13,149 nucleotides of DNA from Candidatus Iainarchaeum sp. (GCA_028713935.1 JAQTNI010000026.1:5626-18774), one strand, 5' to 3'; numbered from the stretch's first letter, positions 1-13,149 are shown. Made by a program: numbers and translations. The notes: a model not told the origin generated them from the sequence alone.

Positions 1-585
1 TATTACTCCGTCAACAACGTATTCTTCAACTCCGTATTTTCCAAACCTGTTTGTGCCTTCCTGTATCTCTGATGTCATCAGGGAAGTTGCACCGCTTCTC
101 ATAAGCACATAGCTGAGTTTTAAGATTGCTTTTCTCACTTCGCTGGAGTTTTCAAAATTGAATCCCAAAGCAGGAATTGAGTCTATTACAACTCTTTTTG
201 CGCCTATTCTTTTTATTACGCGCATTATTTCGAGCAGAAGCTTGTCAACATCATAGCCTGTTACTGGCAATGCATATTCTTCCTGTGATGGCATGCCTAT
301 TTTTGCAATTGAACCGTCAATTATCTGGATTTTGTTTGCTTCTTCCAGTTTTTTAAGGTCCCAGCCGAATCTCATTACATCTTCCCTTATCAGGTCAGGC
401 CTTTCGTCAAGAGTCACATAAACTCCCGGTTCTCCATAGTCTTTTGCGCCGCTGTAAATATATTGCATGCAAAAAATTGTTTTTCCTGTTCCGCATGCGC
501 CGCTGAGGAGAATGCTTCTTCCTTCTGGAAACCCGCCTTCCATTAATTCGTCCAAGCCGTAAATCCCGGTTTTTATCCTTTTCAT
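1..585 (-). CDS. KaiC-like RecA-superfamily ATPase, N-terminal part only (C-terminus runs off the window start)
   Basis: Not in the ORF track because there is no stop in the window. The reverse complement from ATG (585-583) stays open for 195 codons to base 1: MKRIKTGIYGLDELMEGGFPEGRSILLSGACGTGKTIFCMQYIYSGAKDYGEPGVYVTLDERPDLIREDVMRFGWDLKKLEE...AKRVVIDSIPAL... It has Walker A GACGTGKT and a Walker B-like RVVIDS. The GIxGLDELxxGG opening is typical of archaeal KaiC-family ATPases. Confidence 0.8.
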   Translation of the reverse strand, partial: MKRIKTGIYGLDELMEGGFPEGRSILLSGACGTGKTIFCMQYIYSGAKDYGEPGVYVTLDERPDLIREDVMRFGWDLKKLEEANKIQIIDGSIAKIGMPSQEEYALPVTGYDVDKLLLEIMRVIKRIGAKRVVIDSIPALGFNFENSSEVRKAILKLSYVLMRSGATSLMTSEIQEGTNRFGKYGVEEYVVDGVI

Positions 586-634: not shown

Positions 635-2503
635 TTAAATTCTTTCCGCTTCGAATACCTGCGGAAGTTTTCTTATTTTTTGCATTATTTTTTCCAGTTG
701 TTTTGCCTGCTGGATTCTGACATTGAACAATGCATTCACTGCCCTGCTTTTGTCCTCTTTTGCGCTTGTTGAAACAAGGCTTGCTCCCGAAGAAGAAATA
801 ATGTTTAAAATTCCCGGCAAAAGGCTCGAGGATTCCCTTGCCTTTACCTGTATTTTTACTGCAAAAAATTTTCCAGACCCCATTTCCCAGTCCATTTGCA
901 CAATTTTTTCTTTTCCCGCTTTCAGGATATTTTCGCAGTCCGCCTTGTGCGCAATGATTTTTCTTTTTGTGGTTTTCAATCCGATTATCTCTTCGCCCGG
1001 CAGCGGGTTGCAGCATTTTGCGATTTTTACATTGCTGTTTCCAGTTGTGACATTCTTTCCCGGCTTTGCTGTTTTTTTTATTGCAGGCAACTTCAGCCCG
1101 AGTTTTTGCCGTATTTTTGCCTTTGCTTTTTCAGATTTTGCAAATCCAAGCCAGTCCCTTTTTACCTGCACAGTTTGGCTTGGAATTATTTCTATTGTGT
1201 CAGCATTTTCAATTTTATAGTCAAGCGGGACTATTTTTCCATTGGCCTTGGCTTTCTGGCATTTTAAGCCAAGGTCAGAGTGGATTGCAAAAGCAAAGTC
1301 AACAGGAGTTGATTTTCCCGGCAGGACAACAACCTTGTTTTTCGGGGTTAATGCAAAAATTTTGTCTTCCCCAAAATCTATTTTCAATGAATCCACAAAT
1401 TTGCTTGTTTTTTTCTTTGCCCTGAACCCCTCAATTATTGCCTGGCCCCAGCCCAGTTTTGCGTCAAAATACCTGTTTGCAGGGTACTCTTTGTAAGCCC
1501 AGTGTGAGGCAAGGCCAGTTTCATTGTCCCAGTGCATTTCCATTGTTCTAATCTGTATTTCCACTGGCTTTTTTTGCCAGACAATCACTGTATGAAGCCC
1601 CCTGTAATTGTTTTCCTTCGGATTAATTATATAATCATCAAATTCCTGCGGCACAATTGTGTAATTTGAATGGATAACCCCGAGAATTTCATAGCATTGC
1701 TTTATTGAATCGCAAATTAGCCTTATGCCACGCAAATCCGGCAGTTCCTCGAATTTTTTTCCCAGATTCATTTTTTTGTAAATTGAAAAAAAATGCTTTG
1801 GCCTGCCTGAAATGCTTGCTTTTATTTTTTCTTTTTTTAAAAGGCAGCTTATTTCTTCCGCAATAATCCTGATTTCTTTTTCCCTCGTCCCCCTTTGCTG
1901 CCTGACAAGGGCTTTTATGTTGCCAAATTCTTTTGGGTTTAGTGCCTTGAAACAGGAATCTTCAAGCTGCCATTTCATTTGGTGAAGCCCAAGCTTGTCG
2001 CAGATTGGCACGAAAATTGCAAGGCAGCGCTTTGCAAAATTTTCTTTTGCGTTTTCATCAAGAACAGCATCGCTGCCTAGCGAGTCAAAAGCAGAGGCAA
2101 GTATAATCAGCACTGCCCTGATATCGCGTGCAACAGCCAGGATTACATTTGAAAGGAGCTCGTCTGAAAAATTCTGGAAATTTTTTTCCTCTATCTGGAA
2201 TGCCTTTGCGCATTCTTCCACAATTTCGGCTATTTCTTCGCCAAAAAAAGAATTTATTTCTTCTCTCTTTGTGTTTCCTGCGAGAAAAGTGTCGTGCAGC
2301 AATGCAGAGGCAATTGTGGCGTCGTCTGTGCCTGTCTGTGCCATTAGCAAGGCAACATTGAGAATGTGCTGTATTGCAGGCGAATCTTTTTTTGCAGCCT
2401 GTTTTTCCAGTGCAAACTCAAATGCTTTTTCCAAAAGCTTCCTGTCCGCTTTTGGATTGAATTTTCTTGCTTCTAGGAGGATATCTTCGAAATTTTTTTG
2501 CAT
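635..2503 (-). CDS. Long RelA/SpoT homologue (RSH): HD-like domain, (p)ppGpp synthetase, TGS, Zn-finger and ACT/RRM domains. The hydrolase motifs appear degenerate (RelA-like).
   Basis: 622-aa ORF. HD-like N-terminus with H46 and H70-D71 (ALLHDTF). Synthetase motifs: SGRPKHFFSIYKKM, DLRGIRLI, EFDDY, YRGLHTVI, VEIQIRTMEMHWDNETGLASHWAYKE. TGS: IFALTPKNKVVVLPGKSTPVDFAFAIHSDLG...ANGKIVPLDYKIENADTIEII. Zn-finger/CC: CCNPLPGEEIIG...IIAHKADCENI. C-terminal ACT/RRM-like: FAVKIQVKARESSSLLPGILNIISSSGASLVS. Confidence 0.9.
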   Translation of the reverse strand: MQKNFEDILLEARKFNPKADRKLLEKAFEFALEKQAAKKDSPAIQHILNVALLMAQTGTDDATIASALLHDTFLAGNTKREEINSFFGEEIAEIVEECAKAFQIEEKNFQNFSDELLSNVILAVARDIRAVLIILASAFDSLGSDAVLDENAKENFAKRCLAIFVPICDKLGLHQMKWQLEDSCFKALNPKEFGNIKALVRQQRGTREKEIRIIAEEISCLLKKEKIKASISGRPKHFFSIYKKMNLGKKFEELPDLRGIRLICDSIKQCYEILGVIHSNYTIVPQEFDDYIINPKENNYRGLHTVIVWQKKPVEIQIRTMEMHWDNETGLASHWAYKEYPANRYFDAKLGWGQAIIEGFRAKKKTSKFVDSLKIDFGEDKIFALTPKNKVVVLPGKSTPVDFAFAIHSDLGLKCQKAKANGKIVPLDYKIENADTIEIIPSQTVQVKRDWLGFAKSEKAKAKIRQKLGLKLPAIKKTAKPGKNVTTGNSNVKIAKCCNPLPGEEIIGLKTTKRKIIAHKADCENILKAGKEKIVQMDWEMGSGKFFAVKIQVKARESSSLLPGILNIISSSGASLVSTSAKEDKSRAVNALFNVRIQQAKQLEKIMQKIRKLPQVFEAERI

Positions 2504-2528
2504 GAATAAAAAACCCTCTGGCGGAATA

Positions 2529-2536
2529 ATTTAAAT
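2529..2536. promoter_or_regulatory. Palindromic TATA-like box (ATTTAAAT) in the divergent RSH/tpiA intergenic region
   Basis: The perfect palindrome atttaaat lies 26 nt from the RSH ATG (2503, minus strand) and 21 nt from the tpiA ATG (2557, plus strand). This spacing fits archaeal TATA boxes driving leaderless or short-leader mRNAs in both directions. Similar TATA-to-ATG spacing recurs at other genes in the window. Confidence 0.35.
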
Positions 2537-2556
2537 ACTTCTCGCAGCTATTTTAA

Positions 2557-3288
2557 ATGAAAGGTGCGCTTTTTCCTGGTGTTTTTTTGAAGCTGAAACT
2601 CCCTGTTTTGTTCATTAATTTCAAGGCTTATGAAGAAGCCACTGGCAAAAAAGCCCTGGCTCTCGCAAAAAAAGCAGAGGCAATTGCAAAAAAATCCAGG
2701 GCTTCAATTGTTTTGGTTGTGCAGGCAACTGACATTTTTTTTCTTTCAAAAAAATCTTTTCTTCCCCTGTTTGCGCAGCATGTTGACCCGATTGAATATG
2801 GCAAGCACTCTGGCTGGATTTCTCCCGGCTCTGTAAAACAGGCAGGCGCAATTGGAACTGTTTTGAATCACGCGGAGCACAAGCTGGAAAATCCTGTCCT
2901 TGAAAAGGCAATTGCCCTTGCAAAGGGCGCAGGCTTGCTTGTAATGGCCTGTGCAGAGAACCTTGAAAGGGCAAGGCAGATTGCTTCTTTTTTCTCAAAG
3001 CCGGATTTTATTGCAATTGAGCCGCCAGAACTTATTTCCCGCGAAGATGTTTCAGTCAGCACTGCAAGGCCTGGGCTTATTTCAGATTCTGTGAATGCAA
3101 TAAAGCAAATTGCCCCCGGGATAACTGTAATCACGGGCGCAGGAATATTCAATTCCACTGATGTTTCAAAGGCAATTGAGCTTGGCACTTCAGGGGTTTT
3201 TGTTGCAAATAAAATTGTAAAAGCCGCTGACCAAAAAAAAGCAATTCTTGATTTGGTTTCAGGTTTAAAAACTGATAAGAAGAATTAA
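2557..3288 (+). CDS. tpiA: Triosephosphate isomerase, archaeal type
   Basis: LFINFKAYEEATGKKALALAKKAE (catalytic Lys in NFKAY), GTVLNHAEHKL (catalytic His) and FIAIEPPELIS (catalytic Glu) match the archaeal short TIM layout. The N-terminus is ~17 aa longer than usual, so TTG at 2587 (in frame) is an alternative start. Confidence 0.9.
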   Translation: MKGALFPGVFLKLKLPVLFINFKAYEEATGKKALALAKKAEAIAKKSRASIVLVVQATDIFFLSKKSFLPLFAQHVDPIEYGKHSGWISPGSVKQAGAIGTVLNHAEHKLENPVLEKAIALAKGAGLLVMACAENLERARQIASFFSKPDFIAIEPPELISREDVSVSTARPGLISDSVNAIKQIAPGITVITGAGIFNSTDVSKAIELGTSGVFVANKIVKAADQKKAILDLVSGLKTDKKN

Positions 3289-3300
3289 TTAATTATTGCG

Positions 3301-3308
3301 TTTTTTTT
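3301..3308 (+). terminator. Oligo-T tract (T8) just downstream of the tpiA stop
   Basis: gcgTTTTTTTTaa lies 13 nt after the TAA of tpiA, and archaeal termination uses oligo-T runs. It is followed by tttaaaaa (3311-3318), a TATA-like element ahead of the next gene. Confidence 0.35.
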
Positions 3309-3336
3309 AATTTAAAAAATTTTGAGGGTGTTTTGC

Positions 3337-4464
3337 ATGGTTGTTGCTTCCGATTTAATGGAAAAGGATTTTTTGAGAATTGAAAAGGACTCTGTTTTGT
3401 CGCAGGCCATTGGAAAAATGGTTTCTTCAAAAAAGCCTGCTGCGCTTGTTTTTGACAACAATGCTTTTGCAGGCCTGGTTTCAATAAAAATCCTTGCCAG
3501 GAAAACAATTTCAAATCCCTCTGAAACAAAAATCGGCTCTCTTGCGGAATCAATGCCAGTGCTTAAAGAAACAATGCCTATTGAAAAAATCGCTGACCTT
3601 CTTTTTTCAAGCGACGCAAGGGTTTTGCCGGTAGTGAAAAACAGCGCTGTTATTGGCGTGGTTTCCCTGGTTTCAGTTGCAAAGGCAATCGCCTCAATGC
3701 CTGAAATAAAAAAAATTCCCCTTTCAAAAATTGTCAGGAATGCGGTTGTCCTGACTGAAACAGATTCTGTTGGCAGGGCAATTGCATTGATGAAAGAAAC
3801 AAATTCCCTCAGCGCCGCTGTTGTTGATAAAAATTCAAGGCTGATTGGAGTGGTTTCCCTGGAAGAAATCGTGAAAAAATTCCTGCTTTTGCAGAAAGAA
3901 AAATACCGTGCCTCCAAATATTCAAGCGGCGGAACTTCAGGCTCAATAAACCCTGAAAAAGATTCCATGGCAAGCACTCTTGCCCGCAACGAAATGTCAG
4001 AAAATTTTGTTTCAATTGGGCCGAACGAAACAGTCCTGAGGGCTGCTTCTCTCATGGCTTCAAGCAATGCCAGTGAAATAATTGCAGAGGAAAATTCAAG
4101 GGTTCTTGGAATTGTTTCCGCAAAAAACATTCTGCCGTTGCTTCAGTCCCTGAAGCCAGCAAAAAACATTCAGATTGCAAAAATGCCGGTTGTAGATGAA
4201 ATTGACAAGGCAGAACTAATCGGGTTTATTGACAAGGTTTATGACAAAATTGCAAGGATTGTTCCAGGAGAATTTTCCCTGCATGTGCATTTTAAGTCCC
4301 ATGAAAAAGGCGGTGCAAGGAAAAAGCACACTGTTCACTTAAAACTGGTGACGCCAAAAAAAACAATTGTTTCAAAAGCAGTTGACTGGAAGCTCTTGAT
4401 TGCAGTTAAAAATGCAGCGGACTCCCTTGAAAGGGAAACAATTGGCTTTGTAAAAAGAAAATAG
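3337..4464 (+). CDS. Four tandem CBS domains (two Bateman modules) fused to a C-terminal HPF/RaiA (S30AE)-like domain
   Basis: I prefer ATG 3337 (MVVASDLMEKDF...) over the track's TTG 3322. The SD-like gagggtg lies at 3324-3330. There are four CBS-like repeats, each ending in h-G-h-V-S: AFAGLVSIKIL, VIGVVSLVSV, LIGVVSLEEI, VLGIVSAKNI. The last ~97 aa (about 4168-4461) are IQIAKMPVVDEIDKAELIGFIDKVYDKIARIVPGEFSLHVHFKSHEKGGARKKHTVHLKLVTPKKTIVSKAVDWKLLIAVKNAADSLERETIGFVKRK. By eye this aligns with the beta-alpha-beta-beta-beta-alpha pattern of E. coli HPF/YfiA (...DMYAAIDGLIDKLARQLTKHKDK). Confidence 0.8.
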   Translation: MVVASDLMEKDFLRIEKDSVLSQAIGKMVSSKKPAALVFDNNAFAGLVSIKILARKTISNPSETKIGSLAESMPVLKETMPIEKIADLLFSSDARVLPVVKNSAVIGVVSLVSVAKAIASMPEIKKIPLSKIVRNAVVLTETDSVGRAIALMKETNSLSAAVVDKNSRLIGVVSLEEIVKKFLLLQKEKYRASKYSSGGTSGSINPEKDSMASTLARNEMSENFVSIGPNETVLRAASLMASSNASEIIAEENSRVLGIVSAKNILPLLQSLKPAKNIQIAKMPVVDEIDKAELIGFIDKVYDKIARIVPGEFSLHVHFKSHEKGGARKKHTVHLKLVTPKKTIVSKAVDWKLLIAVKNAADSLERETIGFVKRK

Positions 4465-4470
4465 TTTTTT

Positions 4471-4710
4471 TTATCTTTTTTTCTTTTTTTTCTTTGCTTT
4501 TGAAGCCTTTTTTGGCCTTGCTTTTGCCTTCTGCTTTGATTTTTTGGCAGGTTTTTTCTTTGGCATTCTTGAAGGCTTTTTGCTGCGAACCTTTTTCCTG
4601 CGCTCCCTCATTGTGGCAGGCATGAACAGCTCCAAATCAGTGCTTTTTTCTTCGCGGAGCTCTCTTCGCATCTCATCAATAATGTCCTTGACTGTTTTCC
4701 GCTCTTCCAT
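4471..4710 (-). CDS. Small basic protein with an acidic/helical N-terminus and a poly-Lys tail (hypothetical; possibly nucleic-acid binding)
   Basis: 79-aa ORF: MEERKTVKDIIDEMRRELREEKSTDLELFMPATMRERRKKVRSKKPSRMPKKKPAKKSKQKAKARPKKASKAKKKKKKR. A TATA-like ttttatata on the minus strand (about 4753-4762) lies upstream. The low-complexity tail makes the coding status uncertain. Confidence 0.4.
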   Translation of the reverse strand: MEERKTVKDIIDEMRRELREEKSTDLELFMPATMRERRKKVRSKKPSRMPKKKPAKKSKQKAKARPKKASKAKKKKKKR

Positions 4711-4896
4711 AACCTAAACCTTCAAAATCGTAATTAGTAGTTTTTTTCTAGTATATAAAATTATGTTCCTCAAAGATGCCCCCAAAACAAGGTTATGTAG
4801 AATAATTCCCTGGCTTGCCAGCTGCAGAAAGCAAAAATTTCACCAACCTTATCTGCGGCGTAATCTTGGCCTGCGCCTTGCCTTTTTGGCTGCTAA

Positions 4897-5280
4897 CTAG
4901 CTTCCAATTCCTGCGCCAATAACTGCACTGCCTGCAATGCATTTTGTTTTGTGCTTTTGCTTGAATTGTTTTACTCTGTCAAGGCGTTTTGCCCAAACTG
5001 CATGTGTTTTTCCTCTTTTTGCATAATCCTGCTGTAATTCCCATGCAGCCATTTCACCAGCTGCATTGTGAAAGTTCGAGCTGGCAAAAAATTTTTTCCA
5101 TTCAGCGTTTGTTTTTCGCGAAACTAATTTTTCAGCTGCTTCAATGCCGGAATTTGTTAGTGCGCCACTGCCAAGGGCCATTCCTGCAATGACTGTGGCT
5201 TTTCTAATTCTCCGCCTTCTCGGGCTTTCAATTTTTTTCTTGGCATAGGTTAGGGCAGGGATTGCGTTTTGTTGTGTCAT
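4897..5280 (-). CDS. Hypothetical protein with two glycine-zipper-like hydrophobic segments (putative small membrane protein)
   Basis: The track ORF 4897..5346 begins at a TTG. In-frame ATGs lie at 5301 and 5280. The palindromic TATA-like gttaattaac (5302-5311) sits 23-30 nt upstream of ATG 5280, favouring MTQQNAIPAL... Segments VIAGMALGSGALTNSG and CIAGSAVIGAGIGS (extreme C-terminus) look like GxxxG/glycine-zipper helices flanking a ~75-aa K/R/Q/W-rich helical region. Confidence 0.55.
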   Translation of the reverse strand: MTQQNAIPALTYAKKKIESPRRRRIRKATVIAGMALGSGALTNSGIEAAEKLVSRKTNAEWKKFFASSNFHNAAGEMAAWELQQDYAKRGKTHAVWAKRLDRVKQFKQKHKTKCIAGSAVIGAGIGS

Positions 5281-5504
5281 TGTCAAATCAGCTATTAACA
5301 TGTTAATTAACTTTCCGCGGGGCTTTGCACGTAAAGTCAAGTTCAACGGTTCAAATCAAACTTGTCTTTGATAAAACTCCAAAATTTATCCCAAAAGTCA
5401 TCAATTTCTTTTGTTATTGCCAAAGACTAAAATCTGCCATAAACTCACTTCTTTCTCGCTGTGCTCCAATAAGGGCTTTTGCATTTTTGGGTCTCCAAAT
5501 TTGA

Positions 5505-6632
5505 TTAATATTTATTTAATATTTTTTTTAATTCTTTTAAAAATTCCCTGGTATCTGCAAAATAGTTAGGGTATGCTTTTTCAAGTTCTTTGGCGGTATC
5601 TACCCCAACAAGAACCACATCGTATTGCTTTTGTCCGTGATATTTTTTTTCAGCATTATTATACGCTTCAACTGCTTCTTTTTCTTCGCCCATTTTATAA
5701 GTTATAATTTTAAGTTCAGATGCAGTTTCTTCTGCAACATTTAGCTCCAATAAAAAGTATTGTGTCTGTTTCCTTTTATTTTTTTTTTCCTTTGACCCCT
5801 CTTTTGTGTCCCAATTTTTCATCGCATTTATTCCTCTTGTCCAGCTTTCAAGCCTATGCACTACATTTAATTCAGCTTCTTTCTTCTTGATTGCTAGATA
5901 AAGCTCTTTTTCATTATTTGGGGTGTTTGGGACAATGGGTAAGTTTTCGTTTTTAGCAAAAGCAGAACTTACGAGCTTAAAAAATTCTTTCCAATCCTCG
6001 CTTCCCTCGTTTGATTTTATTGCCTGCTTAGTAATAAACCCTGCTATTTCCACTGCTGTTGCCCATTGGTGTTGCAATTTAGACCTAAATTGAAGTTCAA
6101 TTAGCAGTCCATTATTAAAGATTTTTTTCCCTTTTTTATCACTATAATATTCATAAACAAGATGATAACTTCTGTAGCCATCCCTTTTTGGTTTTGAGAT
6201 ATAATCATTTGTTTTTACTTGTCTATGTTTTAAATTCACTTTTAGGTTGTAATACTGTTCATATAATCGCTTTGTTTCCATAACCGTTGGCATAATTGCC
6301 CGGCATCCGCCAATATCCTGCATATCGTAGAGTGTTATGGCATGTTTACGACCAGAATACTGCTTTGTAAGTTTGTAAAGAATAGCTGGAACACGTTTTA
6401 ATCTCTGCGCAGTTAATGCGTTTTTGTTTACCTCATTAGCTTTTGATTTTAGTCTTATTTTGAATACGTGCATCGGGTAACCGTGTGCTGCTCTCCAATT
6501 GTCCATAATTTTCATTGCTTCTTCCTTTTGTTCTTGAGAACTTGCAGGGTTTATTAGAACATTCCCGGCAGCAGTTATTTGTTCTTTGCTATATTCGGGT
6601 TTTATCCAATTCATGTTATACTTTCTGCGCAT
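5505..6632 (-). CDS. Stand-alone RelA/SpoT (RSH synthetase-fold) domain protein with a ~140-aa C-terminal extension. Candidate toxSAS, with CapRel-like fused architecture.
   Basis: 375-aa ORF. Synthetase-fold motifs: AQRLKRVPAILYKL, DMQDIGGCRAI, YISKPKRDGYRSYHLVYEY, LIELQFRSKLQHQWATAVEIAGF. There is no HD, TGS or ACT domain. The C-terminal ~140 aa (…YFLLELNVAEETASELKIITYKMGEEKEAVEAYNNAEKKYHGQKQYDVVLVGVDTAKELEKAYPNYFADTREFL…) is unassigned. A TATA-like tttaaata (minus strand, 6645-6638) is centred ~27 nt upstream of the second ATG (6614, MNWIKPEY...), which may be the true leaderless start. Confidence 0.85.
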   Translation of the reverse strand: MRRKYNMNWIKPEYSKEQITAAGNVLINPASSQEQKEEAMKIMDNWRAAHGYPMHVFKIRLKSKANEVNKNALTAQRLKRVPAILYKLTKQYSGRKHAITLYDMQDIGGCRAIMPTVMETKRLYEQYYNLKVNLKHRQVKTNDYISKPKRDGYRSYHLVYEYYSDKKGKKIFNNGLLIELQFRSKLQHQWATAVEIAGFITKQAIKSNEGSEDWKEFFKLVSSAFAKNENLPIVPNTPNNEKELYLAIKKKEAELNVVHRLESWTRGINAMKNWDTKEGSKEKKNKRKQTQYFLLELNVAEETASELKIITYKMGEEKEAVEAYNNAEKKYHGQKQYDVVLVGVDTAKELEKAYPNYFADTREFLKELKKILNKY

Positions 6633-6637
6633 AACAT

Positions 6638-6645
6638 TATTTAAA
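6638..6645 (-). promoter_or_regulatory. TATA-like box (TTTAAATA on minus strand) upstream of the RelA/SpoT-domain gene
   Basis: Its downstream edge lies 6 nt from ATG 6632 and 24 nt from the in-frame ATG 6614. The latter spacing matches the leaderless pattern seen elsewhere in the window. Confidence 0.3.
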
Positions 6646-6802
6646 CCTTAATATGCGCAATTAAACAAATTTTTTATTTTTGCCATAAAACATATTATAA
6701 TAAGCATAATGGCATTTATAAAAAATGTTATGTTTAAGTAAATAGACTAAACATTATTTTGCGCTGTTATTTTTTGGTATTAATTCTATTTTGTAGCTCT
6801 GC

Positions 6803-7101
6803 TTGGTCTGGAAACAGTGATTGAAAAAGGGTCACTGAAAAATGGACTTTGCTTCCTGAAAAAAGTTTAATCATTGCTTTTTCTCGCTTCCGGCCCTTCA
6901 AAGCATTTTTTGTTAAAGCCACCGTTGCTTTCTTCCGAACCTGGCGGGTTTCACTCCAGCAAAAAATCTCTGAAGACAGAAGGTCACTGTCCAAGCAATG
7001 GCTCTTTTCAGGGAACCAAGCCTCTTTTCCAGCATCAGCCCCGGCATAAAGCAGGTTTCCGGTTACAAGGCACTGCTGCCGCCCCAGCCTGACCCAGACA
7101 A
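6803..7101 (-). ncRNA. Signal recognition particle RNA (archaeal 7S/SRP RNA, ~300 nt); ends approximate
   Basis: A GC-richer patch with no convincing ORF. The minus strand reads GAGUGAAACCCGCCAGGUUCGGAAGAAAGCAACGGUGGC (about 6957-6918). This matches the universally conserved SRP helix-8 motif (…GUGAAC…CCAGGUC-GGAA-…GAGCA…) with a GGAA tetraloop. An Alu-domain-like UGUAACCGGAAAC lies near the 5' end (about 7067-7055). Nested long-range complements consistent with helices 1 and 5 are cauugcuu (7000-6993) with aagcaaug (6879-6872), ccugaaaa with uuuucagg, ggaaa with uuucc, and gucu with agac near the ends. Confidence 0.8.
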
Positions 7102-7160
7102 ATTGTGTTAAAACAATCTTTTAATTGTTTTGATGAACAATAATTTTTAGGGATTGGCTT

Positions 7161-7415
7161 ATGGAAAAAACTCCAATTGGAAAAATAACCCATTTTTTTG
7201 ACAAGATAGGAGTGGCTGTTTTGGAGCTTTCAGGGCCCTTAAAACAAGGCGAAAAAATTTCTGTTGAAGGCCATGCAGGGGAATTGTTTGAGCAGACAGT
7301 CGGCAGCATGCAGATTGACAAGAAAACAGTTGTTTCTGCAAAAAAAGGCCAGGCAATTGGCCTGAAATTAATTCAGCCAGTAAAACCAATTGCACAGGTA
7401 TTCAAAGTAAAATGA
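7161..7415 (+). CDS. Small EF-Tu domain II-like beta-barrel protein (translation elongation factor-like protein)
   Basis: 84 aa: MEKTPIGKITHFFDKIGVAVLELSGPLKQGEKISVEGHAGELFEQTVGSMQIDKKTVVSAKKGQAIGLKL... It matches the pattern of the widespread ~85-aa stand-alone GTP_EFTU_D2-like proteins (IGxVTHYFxKIGVAVxEL...GDxIxIxG...FEQxVxSMQI...V..AxxGxxVGxKV). Confidence 0.65.
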   Translation: MEKTPIGKITHFFDKIGVAVLELSGPLKQGEKISVEGHAGELFEQTVGSMQIDKKTVVSAKKGQAIGLKLIQPVKPIAQVFKVK

Positions 7416-7487
7416 AGAAAGCCCAAAATTGCCAGCATATGCCTTTTGTAGCTTCTGCTTACAGCAATTCCCCGAGGAATAATTTTT

Positions 7488-8441
7488 TCAGCTTTCCACG
7501 TCTTCTATTCCGTGCTCTGTTACCCTGAAAATTGCTTCCCCGTCAGGCAATGAAGGCGAATCAACGAGTTTTGCGACTCTTTTGTCTTCCTTGCTTTTGC
7601 GCAGGTAAATTCTTGTTTTGCTGTTATGCGCAACAATGTCCCCTCCAATCGGAGTTGTTGGGTCGCCAAACAAAATTCCCGGGTTTTGCATTACCTGGTT
7701 TGTAACTAAAACAGCAATGTTGTTCATTTCCGCAACTTTCATCAGTGCGTGCATGTGCTTGTTCAGTTTTTGCTGCCTGTCAGCCAACTGGCCCCTTCCA
7801 ATAAATTCAGACCTGAATTGCGCAGTAAGGGAATCAACTATTATCAATTTTATTCCTTTTTCCTTTATTATTTCATCGGCTTTTTCCGCAAGCAATATCT
7901 GGTGGTCTGAATTGTAAGCCCTTGCCACTAAAATGTTTTTCAAAACTTCTTCCTGGTTTAATCCAAGGTGTTCTGCAATTGCAATTATTCTTTCCGGCCT
8001 GAAGGAATTTTCCGCGTCAATCCAGAGGCATGGCCCGTTAAGCCCTCCTTTTTCAACTGGCAATTGGACTGTTACTGCTGCCTGAAAGCACACCTGTGTT
8101 TTGGCGCTTGCAAATTTTCCATAAATTTCTGTTATGCTTCCAGTTTCAATGCCGCCGCCAATCATTGAGTCAACGTCTTTGCTTCCTGTAGTAATTTTTC
8201 CAACAAGCTTTCTTCTTTCGGCAATTTTGTCTGCTGTTTCAAAGCCCATTTCAAGGGAGTCCCTTGCAGCCCTGATTGCTTTTGTTGCAGTTGCCTCTCC
8301 AAGGCCTGCTGCTTCAACAAGCTCCGCAGGGGAAGCAATTGCAATGCTTTCAACTGTTTTATAGCCTGCAGCCATTAGTTTTTCTGCTGCCTGTGTTCCA
8401 ATGCCAGGCAAATCCTCTATTTCCTTTATCTGTTTCCCCAT
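7488..8441 (-). CDS. radA: DNA repair and recombination protein RadA (archaeal Rad51/RecA homologue)
   Basis: N-terminal HhH domain: IEDLPGIGTQAAEKLMAAGYKTVESIAIASPAELVEAAGLGEATATKAI. RecA core: LIIVDSLTAQFRSEFIGRGQLADRQQKLNKHMHAL, VLVTNQV, PIGGDIVAHNSKTRIYLRKSKEDKRVAKLVDSPSLPDGEAIFRVTEHGI. I prefer ATG 8441 (MGKQIKEIEDLPGIG), which is preceded by a strong SD GGAGG (complement of 8449-8453, 7-nt spacer). The track's ATG 8522 would add 27 hydrophobic residues. Confidence 0.95.
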   Translation of the reverse strand: MGKQIKEIEDLPGIGTQAAEKLMAAGYKTVESIAIASPAELVEAAGLGEATATKAIRAARDSLEMGFETADKIAERRKLVGKITTGSKDVDSMIGGGIETGSITEIYGKFASAKTQVCFQAAVTVQLPVEKGGLNGPCLWIDAENSFRPERIIAIAEHLGLNQEEVLKNILVARAYNSDHQILLAEKADEIIKEKGIKLIIVDSLTAQFRSEFIGRGQLADRQQKLNKHMHALMKVAEMNNIAVLVTNQVMQNPGILFGDPTTPIGGDIVAHNSKTRIYLRKSKEDKRVAKLVDSPSLPDGEAIFRVTEHGIEDVES

Positions 8442-8643
8442 AACAATTCCTCCTTGGGCCAGCCATTTGAAGCAATTAATTTGGGAAATAATTGCCACTT
8501 GGGCTGCCAATTCAATAAGCATAATGATTGGATGCTTTTAAATAGTTTTTAGAGTGCACTTCCGCTATTCCGTCTCTTAAGAAGAATCAATATATTTTTA
8601 TTTAATTATGTGCATTAAATAATTATAAAAAAAAGGTGTTTTT

Positions 8644-9237
8644 TTGGCGCGAACCATTACTTTGTCTGTTTCTGATAATACTTTTGAATTGATGCGGAAG
8701 CATCCCGAAATCAATTATTCTGAACTGGCCAGGCAGAGGATTAACGGGTATCTGGCTTCCCTTTCCGAGAAAAGGGTTGTTTCTTTCGATTTTTTAGTCC
8801 TGAAGGATTTGATTTTTGCTCCGGAAAAAATTGTTGAAATTCATAATAGGATTGAGAAGAACCACAAGATGATGCGCACTCTTTCTTGGGTTGAATCTGT
8901 TTTTGACCTGGATTTGTTTGACAGCCTGTCAAAGTTTTTGCACGAGTTTGCAAGGGTTCATCCTTTTGAAGATGGCAATAAAAGAGCTTCTTTTGTCTGC
9001 GTTGATGCCTTTTTGCGGCTGAATTTTATGAAGCTTAGAATTAACCAGTCTTCAAAAAAAACTACTGATGATGAAAAGTTTTTTTGGCAGAACGCAAACA
9101 TGCAGAAGCCGCTTGATGAAATAAGGATTTTCCTCAAAAAGCATGTTGTTGAATCCCGAAGGCCAAAAAGCGTTGAGGCAGCTGTTTTTGATTCAATCAG
9201 CGAAAACAAAATTCTGCTGGAACGCCTTGCCCTTTAA
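8644..9237 (+). CDS. Fic/Doc-family protein (Doc-type HxFxDGNKR motif) with an N-terminal ribbon-helix-helix-like segment
   Basis: The Doc-type motif HPFEDGNKR lies at 8959-8985 (residues 106-114), followed by ASFVCVDAFLRLNF. The N-terminus MARTITLSVSDNTFELMRKHPEINYSELARQRINGYL has the strand-helix-helix pattern of CopG/Arc/MetJ RHH domains. The start is TTG 8644, 5 nt after the SD-like aggtg (8634-8638). The first in-frame ATG would delete the RHH strand. Confidence 0.8.
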   Translation: MARTITLSVSDNTFELMRKHPEINYSELARQRINGYLASLSEKRVVSFDFLVLKDLIFAPEKIVEIHNRIEKNHKMMRTLSWVESVFDLDLFDSLSKFLHEFARVHPFEDGNKRASFVCVDAFLRLNFMKLRINQSSKKTTDDEKFFWQNANMQKPLDEIRIFLKKHVVESRRPKSVEAAVFDSISENKILLERLAL

Positions 9238-9635
9238 TGCTTTCTAATCAGGACAACAAACAGTTCATCCAAAGTCAATCCTTGTTTTGACAGGAATTCC
9301 TTGATTTCTTTTTCAGTGTTTTCCCTGTCTGCAGTCAAATATTGGTGTGTTGCAACAATGTTTTTTTGTTCCTTGAGCATTTTTGTCTGGCACGAGTCTG
9401 TCCATTCGTCAATAATAATTTTGTTTTGATTGTTTTTTGCTATTGCACTGGAAAGCATTGTTTTTTCGGAAAACGGCAGTCCAAAAATAACTATATTTTT
9501 TGTTTGCACTGCAAGCTCTGAAGCAATAACACAAAGAAGCCTATTATTTTCAATCTCCAAAGTTTTAACAATCCTGAAACCAAAACTTTTTTCCATTTCA
9601 AAATTCTTGAAAAACAGGCTTAAATGCATTTTCAA
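9234..9635 (-). CDS. Hypothetical protein (133 aa; possible start at ATG 9596)
   Basis: An ORF with typical local codon composition. Its 3' end overlaps the Doc-like gene's stop by 4 nt in convergent orientation. It contains NIVIFGLPFSEKTMLSSAIAK...KIIIDEW. I recognise no confident family. Confidence 0.5.
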   Translation of the reverse strand: MKMHLSLFFKNFEMEKSFGFRIVKTLEIENNRLLCVIASELAVQTKNIVIFGLPFSEKTMLSSAIAKNNQNKIIIDEWTDSCQTKMLKEQKNIVATHQYLTADRENTEKEIKEFLSKQGLTLDELFVVLIRKH

Positions 9636-9697: not shown

Positions 9698-10093
9698 ATG
9701 CAAAAAAAGCCAATGAGAAGGCCAGAGCTTAAGAGGCGTGTAGCAAGTTTGAGGCGAGCAGCTTCTGAAAGAGCCTTTGCTGAATTTATACTCAAATTTC
9801 CAAATCCTGAAGTTGCACAGCGTCACTATGACAGAATTCGCCAAGCATTGGCTGCAAAAACAGTTGATTGGGAAAAGGTTAAGAACTCAATTAATTATTG
9901 GGACAGAGTCAGAACTGAAACTTTGGAACTTAACAAAAAATTTGGCAAGGCAATCAGAAGCGGTTTGCGTTTAGGGATGCAACCACCTTCTATCATGGCT
10001 GAACAATTGCAAAGCATACAAGAAATGCAGCAGCAAGCTTTTTCAGACCTTGCCAGGATAAAAGCCCGCAGAAAAATGGAATTAGGAAAATAA
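9698..10093 (+). CDS. Hypothetical basic helical protein (131 aa)
   Basis: ATG-initiated ORF filling the gap between flanking genes: MQKKPMRRPELKRRVASLRRAASERAFAEF...QEMQQQAFSDLARIKARRKMELGK. It is R/Q/A-rich and predicted all-helical by eye. No recognisable motif. Confidence 0.5.
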   Translation: MQKKPMRRPELKRRVASLRRAASERAFAEFILKFPNPEVAQRHYDRIRQALAAKTVDWEKVKNSINYWDRVRTETLELNKKFGKAIRSGLRLGMQPPSIMAEQLQSIQEMQQQAFSDLARIKARRKMELGK

Positions 10094-10102
10094 ATTTTCA
10101 AA

Positions 10103-11416
10103 TTATTTTTTTTCAATGCTTCTTGCTGTTATTTCCAGTTCTGAAGAAAAAGAGTTTTCTTTTATTTTTCCCTGCAATGTGATTTCCGAGTTCCAGAGTT
10201 TGCCCCTTATTTCATCGAGAGTTTCTTCCAAACCTGCTTCCGCAATTTTTTTTTCAATTTCTTTTGCGCTCAGCCCAATCAGTTCTTCCGCTGTTTTGCC
10301 GTAAAAAACAGAATTAATGCTTCCGCTTTCATCGCCTATTTTCACTGAAATCACTGCGCTTGGCACTGATTCTTTTTGTTCTCCGCAGTTTTCGCACAAA
10401 AAGCTTTCTTCCATCTTAATTGCTTTTTTTCCGCATTTCGGGCAGGTGTTGAACAACAATTTTCCAGAGCCGATTTCAAGGATTTTCCCGTTTATTTCAA
10501 CAAGGGCATCGTCCTTGTGCAAATTGGAGATTTTCTTTTTTGTCACGTCAATTCCGCGCAGTTCCATTGCGCTTGGCAATTCCTCTTCAATTTTCGGGTT
10601 TTTTATTATCCTTGCTTTGTAGCCAAGATGCAGTTCAATGCCTTTCAGGCCCTGCTTTGTGTAAGCGCCCTCTATTTTCACCAAATCGTTTTCCGCTAAT
10701 TTTTCTGTTTCGTTTGCAATGTCATTCCAGGCAGTTGCCCTTATTGAATTTGTTTTGTCAGCAATAAGAAAATTTGCAACTTTTCCGGAAACATTTTCTT
10801 TTTTGAATTCAGTGGCTGGAAAAACCCGCAGAATGCGCACAATTGCATTCACATCGCTCAGGCCAGGCTGCAATTCGTCAAGCCTGAAAACCTTGTTTTC
10901 AATTTTTGGCAAAAAACCACTGTCCACGCCTGTTGGATTAACTGAAAGCTCTCCCTGGTATGACAGGTTAAGCTGGGCTTTTTCCTTGAAGCTGGTAACA
11001 TAACAATTTTTGAGTTCAAGGACAGAGCCTTTTTCAGCTCCCTGCTCCTGGATTTTTTTTACATCGTCATGCCAAAGAGTCAGCCTGATTTCGCCTGAAT
11101 CATCCGCAACAATAAGATTGCAGAGCCTGCCTTTTTTCCCGTTTTTTTCAAATTCCTTTGGGGCAAAAATCTGCATTACCTTCACAAGCAAATCAACATT
11201 GCTCATCCCATCTTCAAGCTGTTTTATCTTCATTCTTTCAGAGCTTTTGTCAAGCTCAAGGCCAAGCTCCTTTGCAACCATCAAAGCAGCCCCGCTTTCA
11301 GTGAGCAGGCCAGCAAATTTTTCCTTTTTTGACTCAATTTTTTCAAGGATTTCTTCTTTCGGCTTGCCGCTTTCCGCGACAATTTTTTCAACAAGAGAAA
11401 TAGAAGTTGTTTCCAT
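10103..11416 (-). CDS. Replication protein A (archaeal RPA/RFA single-stranded DNA-binding protein with multiple OB folds and a zinc ribbon)
   Basis: 437 aa. N-terminal helical module: LVEKIVAESGKPKEEILEKIESKKEKFAGLLTESGAALMVAKELGLEL. Repeated OB-fold segments: NLIVADDSGEIRLTLWHDD and NFLIADKTNSIRATAWNDIA. C4 zinc ribbon: CPKCGKKAIKMEESFLCENCG. This is the typical euryarchaeal-type RPA layout. Confidence 0.9.
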   Translation of the reverse strand: METTSISLVEKIVAESGKPKEEILEKIESKKEKFAGLLTESGAALMVAKELGLELDKSSERMKIKQLEDGMSNVDLLVKVMQIFAPKEFEKNGKKGRLCNLIVADDSGEIRLTLWHDDVKKIQEQGAEKGSVLELKNCYVTSFKEKAQLNLSYQGELSVNPTGVDSGFLPKIENKVFRLDELQPGLSDVNAIVRILRVFPATEFKKENVSGKVANFLIADKTNSIRATAWNDIANETEKLAENDLVKIEGAYTKQGLKGIELHLGYKARIIKNPKIEEELPSAMELRGIDVTKKKISNLHKDDALVEINGKILEIGSGKLLFNTCPKCGKKAIKMEESFLCENCGEQKESVPSAVISVKIGDESGSINSVFYGKTAEELIGLSAKEIEKKIAEAGLEETLDEIRGKLWNSEITLQGKIKENSFSSELEITARSIEKK

Positions 11417-11594: not shown

Positions 11595-12458
11595 TTGCGA
11601 AAATTTTTAAGAAGAGTAATTAACCCATTAGGGCAAAAAAAGCCGCAACCGCAACTGCAAGCCCCGGCGTCAACCAATATGGCCAGGTCCATTCCTGACC
11701 TTGATGTTGGCCAGCTTTACTCTGACCTACTCCAAGCCTATCAAAATCCAAAAGCCGGCAGTGAGCTTCGGAAAAAATGGGCTAATCAATTCCCAATGCA
11801 CCTTGGCATTCAAACAGCTTTTCGTGATATTGGCGATTATGCCATGGATCCGCGCAAGCATGCAAATGTAGTGCAGTCAGATAACCCCAATTATATGCAC
11901 GAAGTTGTCGCATCACGGGTTAGAATGGTTCAAGAACAGGATGCTAAAATCAGGCAAGGCTTATTGATTGGCGCCAGGAATAAAAGAATGCGCAAGACGG
12001 GTTTTTGGCAGTTGAAAAAAGAAGGTCAGGCGCGAGCACGGAACGAAAGGACAGTTAAAATTGAATTGGGCAGATTCCTTAAAACAGTGGGCCCTGAGTT
12101 AAAACCCCGAGTTCAGCATATTCAAAAACTGTTGTTTTCAAATTTTCAATCAGCATGGATTCGAAGAGCCTTGGTCAGCATGGCTCTTGAAGGGCCAAGC
12201 CCCCAAAACATTTCTGAGGCAGCTAAAGCATCGACACACACCCTTGGCAAAGACGAACTTTCAGATACTGCCTGGTTAATTAATTCAATGGCAGTCGAAA
12301 TTGCGGCAAGAGAAAAAAAAGCGATTCCAGACAAAGAAATATCACTGGCATTCAATGCACAATATCAAAGATTCCTCATTCTAAGGCAAAAAATGACACG
12401 CGAAGAATACTTGCGACAACAAGGCGGCCAGGTTATTAGCCAAAAACTTCTTGAGTAA
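11595..12458 (+). CDS. Hypothetical protein (287 aa), compositionally atypical ORFan
   Basis: A long ORF starting at TTG 11595, 5 nt after ggtg (11586-11589). The first in-frame ATG gives MARSIPDLDV... The protein is Q/R/A/M/W/H-rich and the DNA is visibly GC-richer than the neighbouring housekeeping genes. No motif recognised. Confidence 0.6.
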   Translation: MRKFLRRVINPLGQKKPQPQLQAPASTNMARSIPDLDVGQLYSDLLQAYQNPKAGSELRKKWANQFPMHLGIQTAFRDIGDYAMDPRKHANVVQSDNPNYMHEVVASRVRMVQEQDAKIRQGLLIGARNKRMRKTGFWQLKKEGQARARNERTVKIELGRFLKTVGPELKPRVQHIQKLLFSNFQSAWIRRALVSMALEGPSPQNISEAAKASTHTLGKDELSDTAWLINSMAVEIAAREKKAIPDKEISLAFNAQYQRFLILRQKMTREEYLRQQGGQVISQKLLE

Positions 12459-12522
12459 AAATCGCTTCAATAAAATTCACTGTGCTTTGATTATTTGTTC
12501 AGCCTAAAAAAACACCTTTTGA

Positions 12523-12545
12523 CTGCTGCTTGCAGGTTTTTTTTT
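12523..12545 (+). terminator. Short hairpin plus T9 tract downstream of the 287-aa ORF
   Basis: ctgc-tgctt-gcag (12523-12535) is followed by g and nine T (12537-12545). The oligo-T run fits an archaeal termination signal. Confidence 0.4.
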
Positions 12546-12584
12546 GCAAAAACCCTTTTAATTTGTTTCAAAAAACAAATTGTT

Positions 12585-13149
12585 ATGTTCCGCGAAATTC
12601 TTCCGAATCTTTTCTTTTTTGACGGGCAAGGGGCAGGAAGCAATGTTTTCCTGCTTGCAGGGAAGAAAACCGCCCTGGTTGATTCTTCTTCAGAATCAAA
12701 TTCTGCTCAATTGATTTCTTCGCTGGAAAAAACCGGGTTTTCCCGCAATGAAATTGATTTTGTTTTTCACACTCACGGCCATGCGGATCATTTTGGCTGC
12801 GATTTTTTGTTTCCAAATGCAAGAATCAGAATGCACAAATTTGACGCAAATTTTGTCAATTCCCCGAATTTGAAATTCACTGCCGCAAATCTTATTCCAA
12901 CAAGCCATTTTCCAAGAATCACTTCTTTTTTCAGGCAGGATGAAGTTATTGATTTGGGCTGCTTTAAATTGCAGGTGCTTTTTACTCCCGGCCATACAAA
13001 AGGAAGCGTGTGCTTTTTTGGCAAAAAACAGGGCCTGTTGTTTTCTGGTGACACTTTGTTTAATGGCAGTTTTGGCAGGTTTGACCTTCAATCCGGAAAC
13101 CCATCCAACTTGTGTTTTTCCCTGAAAAAAATTTTAAATCTTGAATTCA
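12585..13149 (+). CDS. Metallo-beta-lactamase-fold hydrolase (glyoxalase II-like), N-terminal ~188 aa; continues past the window end
   Basis: Not in the ORF track because there is no stop in the window. From ATG 12585: MFREILPNLFFFDGQGAGSNVFLLAGKKTALVDSSSE...IDFVFHTHGHADHFGCDFLF...LFTPGHTKGSVCFF...LLFSGDTLFNGSFGRFDL. It carries the HxHxDH motif, a downstream GH and an SGD motif characteristic of the MBL fold. Confidence 0.85.
   Translation, partial: MFREILPNLFFFDGQGAGSNVFLLAGKKTALVDSSSESNSAQLISSLEKTGFSRNEIDFVFHTHGHADHFGCDFLFPNARIRMHKFDANFVNSPNLKFTAANLIPTSHFPRITSFFRQDEVIDLGCFKLQVLFTPGHTKGSVCFFGKKQGLLFSGDTLFNGSFGRFDLQSGNPSNLCFSLKKILNLEF

Follow-up and report, generated by a model that had tools for sequence, protein, structure and literature searches.

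We have analyzed a stretch of 13,149 nucleotides (the window in what follows) from the genome of a Candidatus Iainarchaeum sp. (GCA_028713935.1, here G000, 1.23 Mb and 93.7% complete). It covers positions 5626-18774 of contig C26 (JAQTNI010000026.1) and reaches the contig end. An earlier note on this DNA had pointed to a dense cluster, between positions 635 and 9237, of four modules that act or are predicted to act on translation, i.e., a long RelA/SpoT homologue (RSH), a CBS-HPF protein, a toxSAS-like enzyme and a Doc-type Fic protein, next to the signal recognition particle (SRP) RNA and a small protein resembling domain II of EF-Tu. All of these elements were found there. The comparison with related genomes that we describe here makes it likely that the four modules are together by ancestry and by insertion into permissive gaps, and that they are not one working unit. 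The window would be a conserved block of housekeeping genes from a DPANN archaeon with a small genome (Iainarchaeia), made up of KaiC, RSH, tpiA, HibA/HPF, a Lys-rich protein, the SRP RNA, a beta-barrel protein, RadA, RPA and MBL (backbone in the list below), into which accessory cargo has been inserted. The genes and features are the following, in order.

1-585, minus strand: KaiC, backbone
635-2503, minus strand: long RSH, 622 aa, backbone
2504-2556, no strand: divergent intergenic region between RSH and tpiA, 53 nt, sequence read directly
2557-3288, plus strand: tpiA, triosephosphate isomerase (TIM, 84.7 bits), backbone
3322-4464, plus strand: CBS-HPF protein of the HibA/AHA type, 380 aa, backbone
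4471-4710, minus strand: Lys-rich protein, 79 aa, backbone of the family
4897-5346, minus strand: orphan open reading frame (ORF), 149 aa, downstream of CapRel and inside the variable slot
5505-6632, minus strand: CapRel-type RelA_SpoT-domain protein, 375 aa, accessory cargo
6825-7099, minus strand: archaeal SRP RNA (RF01857), backbone
7161-7415, plus strand: beta-barrel protein, 84 aa, resembling translation-factor domain II/IV, backbone
7488-8522, minus strand: RadA recombinase (Rad51, 308 bits), backbone
8644-9237, plus strand: Doc-type Fic protein, 197 aa, accessory cargo in the slot between RadA and RPA
9234-9635, minus strand: minimal P-loop NTPase, 133 aa, partner of the gene for the ribbon-helix-helix (RHH)-like Doc
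9698-10093, plus strand: orphan ORF, 131 aa, in the same RadA-RPA slot
10103-11416, minus strand: RPA, backbone
11595-12458, plus strand: orphan ORF, 287 aa, filling the gap between RPA and MBL
12495-13148, plus strand: MBL (metallo-beta-lactamase-fold) protein, backbone

The long RSH has four Pfam matches above their cut-offs (HD_4, RelA_SpoT, TGS and ACT_4) and scores 518.6 bits with TIGR00691 (cut-off 499.2), which bears out its first identification. An alignment with Rel of Mycobacterium and RelA of E. coli shows the synthetase motifs to be intact (RxKxxxSxxxK, DxxGxR, the G-loop Tyr and EhQIRT), EFDDY, NYRGLHT and VEIQIRT are retained, and the acidic EFDDY is identical to that of RelA. 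The hydrolase residues have been lost, HDxxED reading HDTFLA (ED to LA) and DxxHN (DRLHN) reading SAFDS, and the same pattern of degenerate hydrolase and conserved synthetase appears in 40 of the 40 RSH relatives examined. Since the hydrolase residues are absent, we have filed the protein as RelA-like (hS) and not as a bifunctional Rel/SpoT; judging from its motifs, it would make (p)ppGpp from ATP and GTP or GDP. The zinc finger (CCxPxPG) and the ACT/RRM domains are also present. The helical linker from TGS to the zinc finger measures ~25 residues, versus ~115 in Mycobacterium Rel, so that control by the ribosome is uncertain. A search of G000 for a second HD_4 domain gave nothing beyond the degenerate one of the RSH itself, and thus no RSH-type hydrolase that could remove an alarmone is evident in this genome. 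Besides, a second class of RelA_SpoT-domain genes (frames of 480-610 aa), carried by many relatives, is lacking in G000, in its sister species (G001) and in another genome of the same genus (G002). RelA/SpoT genes were described in 69% of Diapherotrites genomes in 2021 and ascribed to transfer from bacteria (PMC8407392).

The CBS-HPF protein consists of an N-terminal CBS tetrad and a C-terminal HPF/RaiA-like domain (residues ~281-380). Pfam gave 105 bits for CBS and 19.8 bits for S30AE, the latter under its cut-off of 23.7, and the protein matches over its full length the ribosome-bound chain 9SR9_H (E 1.2e-29), and also 9L96_a (E 3.2e-15). By these alignments it is a member of the published HibA/AHA family of hibernation factors, and the translation start is probably the ATG at 3337, after GAGGGTG. 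What had been noted earlier as a predicted hibernation factor has therefore become a member of an experimentally characterised kind, as two papers of 2026 described exactly this CBS plus HPF architecture as the hibernation factor HibA/AHA (PMC13324472, PMC13728122). Binding to the 70S across both subunits and inhibition of translation were shown there for the Pyrococcus, Thermococcus and Haloferax homologues (PMC13324472, PMC13728122), the CBS tetrad of AHA was found to bind nucleotides (AMP) (PMC13728122), and stand-alone HPF/RaiA-like proteins were located mostly in DPANN (PMC13324472). By analogy with the Pyrococcus and Haloferax homologues, the protein of the window would act as a plug in idle ribosomes, at the decoding centre and at the tRNA sites. 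The HPF relatives that we found beside tpiA are mostly stand-alone genes of ~100 aa, matching the HPF domain (query residues 281-380), and the CBS-fused form was detected in the genus of the window and in 14 genomes of other families.

To place these two genes in context, we compared the surroundings of the RSH (up to 20 kb) in 40 relatives by tblastn with all the window proteins, and searched 60 genomes of the Iainarchaeia order (that of the window included) for order-wide counts. The gene order KaiC-RSH-tpiA-HPF-(Lys-rich)-(barrel)-RadA-RPA-MBL is found again throughout family f1 and in many further families of the order. RSH-type genes are present in 54 of the 60 genomes and the HPF domain in 47, in one copy each. 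HPF adjoins RSH in every one of the 20 informative genomes of the family, as well as in 12 of the 23 from other families, and tpiA does so at 30 of the 40 related loci. Outside family f1 (24 loci), the genes found at 3 kb or less from RSH were KaiC in 16 cases, tpiA in 14 and HPF in nine. As the linkage of RSH to HPF is no stronger than that to KaiC or tpiA, it looks like inherited gene order. The pairing is real and old, yet it is kept no more faithfully than the pairings with functionally unrelated neighbours. The 53-nt spacer between RSH and tpiA contains a single TATA-like element, TTTAAATA, at 2530-2537, and may be a shared promoter region.

The toxSAS-like call was also borne out. The protein encoded at 5505-6632 on the minus strand scores 53.7 bits with RelA_SpoT, matches PADLOC PDC-S33 over its full length (E 1.9e-111) and aligns with CapRel SJ46 (PDB 7ZTB) over residues 11-369 (E 2.7e-43). 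On this evidence it is classed as a full-length fused toxin-antitoxin of the CapRel type, with a toxSAS N-terminal domain and a C-terminal pseudo-zinc-finger domain (pseudo-ZFD) and anchor; its probable start is M7, at 6614. The residues A77 and R79 of CapRel SJ46 correspond to A75 and R77 in the window protein, R116 to R111, the G-loop Y155 to Y153, and Y352 and Y355 of the YXXY plug to Y354 and Y357 (Y354-P-N-Y357). All of them (A75, R77, R111, Y153, Y354 and Y357) are invariant in 23 archaeal homologues, and the string KAYPNYF is identical in CapRel SJ46 and in the window protein. In CapRel SJ46 these positions include the G-loop Tyr, the ATP-coordinating Arg pair and the YXXY neutralisation motif (PMC9712102). 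If the archaeal protein works like CapRel SJ46, a viral protein bound to the C-terminal sensor would make the YXXY plug leave the active site, and the freed enzyme would pyrophosphorylate tRNA CCA ends, leading to abortive infection.

CapRel-like genes were found in three of the 60 genomes of the order (G000, G001 and G025). That of the sister species is located beyond MBL and not beside the SRP RNA, and it is 55% identical to the gene of the window, versus 70-98% for the backbone proteins. Homologues are widespread elsewhere, with at least 399 species genomes containing a member of the clade. Identity to the window protein is 48-68% among the 80 best, which belong nearly all to Woese-, Nano-, Micr-, Aenigmat-, Pace- and Iainarchaeota, Methanoperedens and other Methanosarcinales, six of the records being bacterial. 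At 77 of these 80 loci there was no neighbour in common with the window, the exceptions being the contig of G001 itself and two weak RPA-like matches. A search for integration scars around the cargo (direct repeats, a duplicated SRP RNA 3' end) gave only short AT-rich chance matches. In the AT-rich stretch between the CapRel start and the SRP RNA 3' end we have seen an imperfect palindrome of 29 nt (6669-6726, 76% complementary, no spacer), which may be an operator or a terminator. Our literature search found no description of archaeal CapRel genes, which is not proof of novelty.

The fourth module, the Fic protein, exceeds the Pfam Fic cut-off (37.5 versus 24 bits), has a match to the PHROG 'Doc-like toxin' and carries the motif HPFEDGNKR, which fits HxFx(D/N)(A/G)NKR and the invariant core of a 29-sequence family alignment. 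Its model (pLDDT 84.6) had P1 Doc as the top three Foldseek matches (probability 1.0, TM 0.61-0.66 by target), in agreement with the earlier assignment to the Doc type, and it falls short of the curated DOC_P1 family TIGR01550 (30.2 bits, cut-off 38.65). The N-terminal extension forms a strand-helix-helix in the AlphaFold model and on that basis looks RHH-like; residues 1-49 had no Pfam match, and an 11-homologue profile matched only a designed protein in PDB. No Phd-like ORF was detected next to Doc, either in the window or at related loci. The conserved neighbour is the minimal P-loop NTPase, of ~115-130 aa and with the motif FGLPxSGKST, which adjoins Doc in G000, G001 and G034 (a genome of another family of the order), and is kept at six of the seven close, informative metagenome Doc loci, located either upstream on the same strand or convergent. 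The model of the P-loop partner (pLDDT 87.9) is a bare P-loop core, for which Foldseek retrieved generic P-loop cores (E > 0.02) and no specific family. Its Walker A in the window reads GLPFSEKT (G57E), and GxPxSGKS/T is intact in all eight homologues (compared at L033:5265-5666, L076:1089-1481 and L171-L179); the change may mark the onset of decay, represent a regulatory variant, or be due to a sequencing error.

The 198-aa Doc was found in three of the 60 genomes of the order (G000, G001 and G034). Its family has ~46 clusters, in all of which the protein measures ~198 aa, and the records that bear a name are without exception from archaea, most of them Diapherotrites. At 24 metagenome loci of the family there was no RadA, RPA, RSH or HPF nearby, and as the copies of the Doc/P-loop pair there are not near RadA or RPA, the pair is mobile. 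The identity within the family (56-68%) had led us to consider Doc as a vertically inherited core gene, which was rejected on account of its presence in three of 60 genomes and of its unrelated contexts in metagenome contigs. The P-loop protein and the Doc-type Fic kinase would presumably act as a toxin-antitoxin or defence pair targeting an elongation factor, and there is a small possibility that they form an undescribed toxin-antitoxin or antiviral module. G000 has four further Fic-domain genes (on contigs C66, C8, C53 and C7), three with frames of 315-344 aa and one of 151 aa, a high Fic gene count for a 1.23 Mb genome.

The places occupied by the cargo genes vary between close relatives. 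In the slot from the Lys-rich gene to the SRP RNA, G002 has a gene for a radical-SAM-type protein (335 aa, L034:13395-14402, minus strand, with CxxxCxxC near the N-terminus), and G001 a different ORF, a Cys-rich membrane protein; the radical-SAM gene stands where the window has CapRel, so the slot takes unrelated cargo. G002 is without both CapRel and Doc. Between RadA and RPA most relatives have 0.1-0.2 kb, but G000, G001 and G004 have 1.6-1.9 kb. In G001 this gap contains, in place of the 131-aa orphan of the window, a protein of 246 aa (L033:4491-5231, plus strand). The C-terminal half of this protein is MazG-like, with ExxE/ExxD motifs judged by eye; MazG-type pyrophosphohydrolases can degrade alarmones in bacteria. 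The gap between RPA and MBL, ~0.1 kb in relatives, holds in the window the 287-aa orphan, the third genome-specific insertion within 13 kb. The G+C content is 0.34-0.37 over both cargo slots (CapRel and Doc), 0.34-0.36 over CapRel itself, versus 0.40-0.43 elsewhere in the window.

The explanation that we consider likely is that the four genes are close together because of ancestry and of insertion in permissive gaps. RSH and HibA/HPF would belong to the inherited block, and CapRel and the P-loop/Doc module would be two independent insertions of mobile toxin-type genes into slots that vary between sister genomes. Chance and horizontal acquisition at a permissive locus, one of the two interpretations proposed beforehand, is thus supported for toxSAS and Doc, each in three of 60 genomes, in variable slots and with unlinked homologues elsewhere. 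The other was a conserved, coordinated dormancy or abortive-infection island. On this view RSH, HibA, CapRel and Doc would have been selected together as a unit that halts translation when the cell starves or is attacked by a virus. Each of the four has an actual or predicted action on translation, and when the two RelA_SpoT, one HPF and five Fic genes of G000 were placed at random, finding all four kinds within 8.6 kb had P ~1e-5. Several observations of this sort speak against our explanation. Besides the improbability under naive placement, G001 also has all four kinds within 12 kb, and G034, of another family, has the P-loop/Doc pair in the same RadA-RPA gap, which fits either an old insertion followed by many losses or a preferred target site. 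In addition, HPF stays beside RSH despite local rearrangement (inverted at L066, without the intervening tpiA at L052, L055, L056 and L072), a retention that could reflect selection. However, this naive test against random gene order overstates the case, because two of the four have been neighbours since their common ancestry and the categories were defined only once the sequence had been inspected. The same-genus genome G002 lacks CapRel and Doc, the CapRel of G001 is elsewhere and divergent, and the cargo slots carry unrelated genes in sister genomes. Homologues of CapRel and Doc in other places never adjoin each other or RSH/HPF. What survives of the island is the RSH/HPF sub-pair, conserved with no more strength than KaiC or tpiA. 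The coordinated unit is already largely refuted by these comparative data, and we regard it as extremely improbable.

A more restricted proposal is that only the old pair is functional, with RSH and the divergent tpiA-hibA forming an alarmone-hibernation circuit (through a shared promoter or alarmone sensing by the CBS tetrad) and the toxins as bystanders, which is compatible with our explanation for the cargo genes. The 53-nt intergenic region with its one TATA-like element, the adjacency in the family and beyond it, and its persistence after loss of tpiA or local inversion in some genomes point in this direction, as do the facts that in bacteria (p)ppGpp drives the synthesis of hibernation factors and that the CBS tetrad of AHA binds AMP (PMC13728122). 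The divergent spacer and the adjacency in rearranged loci leave a functional link between RSH and HPF possible rather than demonstrated. Nevertheless, the linkage of RSH to HPF is weaker than that to KaiC and tpiA, co-occurrence is not strict (10 genomes with RSH only, three with HPF only), the CBS tetrad has been lost in most family members, (p)ppGpp has not been detected in archaea (PMC13728122), and no second RSH-type hydrolase was found in the genome to reset the signal. On balance we judge it unlikely that the old pair is the one functional association here, and quite unlikely, specifically, that RSH and tpiA-hibA with their shared 53-nt region are a working circuit from alarmone to hibernation in which the CBS tetrad or the promoter answers (p)ppGpp. 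It is also conceivable that the cargo genes are decaying remnants without present function, given the GK to EK change in the Walker A of the window P-loop, absent from all eight homologues, and the three neighbouring orphans (149, 131 and 287 aa). This we find very unlikely, as CapRel has its full length and retains each of the catalytic and autoinhibitory residues checked, the Doc motif matches the invariant core of its family, and no frameshifts or internal stops were seen.

The remaining features of the window belong to the backbone or are orphans. The SRP RNA scores 123.8 bits with the full RF01857 model (Rfam gathering score 96.5), as had been proposed, and has the same position in G001, G002, G004 and G011. 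The protein noted before as EF-Tu-domain-II-like lies where it was described and had no Pfam match; a profile of nine homologues gave weak matches to eIF5B domain IV (E 0.003) and to domain II of SelB and EF-1alpha (E 0.2-0.5), and its Atlas neighbours are labelled 'translation elongation factor family', with GTP_EFTU_D2 on 10% of the members, so that the resemblance stands on weak profile and Atlas matches. The 79-aa Lys-rich protein is present at 10 of 16 loci of the family. It has a conserved, invariant-looking N-terminal helix (SVKDIIEEMRKELREE) followed by a long lysine-rich tail, is always convergent to the HPF/HibA gene, and may be a nucleic-acid or ribosome binder. No tRNA was found in the window. 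The orphans of 149, 131 and 287 aa could not be assigned to any family of Pfam, NCBIfam, PADLOC or PHROG, the 131-aa ORF giving weak sub-threshold family matches only, and they had neither paralogues nor usable Atlas matches. The 149-aa ORF was absent at all the related loci compared.

These results correct the attractive but unsupported idea of a translation shut-down island, and illustrate how apparent islands can arise in reduced genomes, where highly conserved genes leave few permissive gaps and mobile toxin-type genes pile up in these. All the components are of known families. Two findings may be new, a large CapRel clade that is mostly archaeal, and the mobile module of P-loop and RHH-like Doc, which seems restricted to Iainarchaeia-type archaea. 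The extension of the CapRel clade across DPANN and Methanoperedens suggests, by analogy with CapRel SJ46, that capsid-sensing immunity by tRNA pyrophosphorylation might also operate against archaeal viruses. A further lead is the order-wide RelA-like synthetase beside a characterised kind of hibernation factor, in a genome without an evident RSH-type hydrolase. If the alarmone circuit were true, it would be a genuine stringent-type response in a domain of life where (p)ppGpp has never been detected.

The modules can be compared with well-studied counterparts. Like E. coli RelA (5IQR, 5KPS), the RSH of the window has pseudo-hydrolase, synthetase, TGS, zinc-finger and ACT/RRM domains in the same order, with degenerate hydrolase catalytic residues and intact synthetase motifs. 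Unlike RelA, it is archaeal, has 622 aa versus 744, nearly lacks the linker between TGS and zinc finger, and no SpoT-like hydrolase partner was found in the G000 genome. The CBS-HPF protein has its closest counterparts in HibA of Pyrococcus abyssi (PDB 9SR9), with which it aligns over its full length, and AHA of Haloferax volcanii (HVO_2384), the length being similar (380 versus 392 aa). It differs from them in that its gene adjoins a long RSH and in that most of its relatives within the family no longer have the CBS tetrad. The CapRel-type protein is, as CapRel SJ46, one polypeptide (375 versus 373 aa) alignable end to end, with the G-loop Tyr, the two ATP-coordinating Arg and the YXXY autoinhibitory motif all kept, whereas its host is archaeal and it sits within a mostly archaeal clade. 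With Phd/Doc of phage P1 (PDB 3K33, 3DD7) the Fic protein shares the Fic fold and the Doc-type motif. In contrast to that system there is no Phd-like gene, and the protein has its own RHH-like N-terminal extension and an adjoining P-loop NTPase gene. As for the arrangement as a whole, in the relA-mazEF-mazG locus of E. coli a translation-targeting toxin-antitoxin module adjoins a long RSH gene. The window resembles it in combining toxin genes with an RSH, and the RadA-RPA slot of the sister species even carries a protein with a MazG-like C-terminal half, but the toxins here belong to other families, occupy slots of their own several kb away from the RSH, and have not been conserved along with it.

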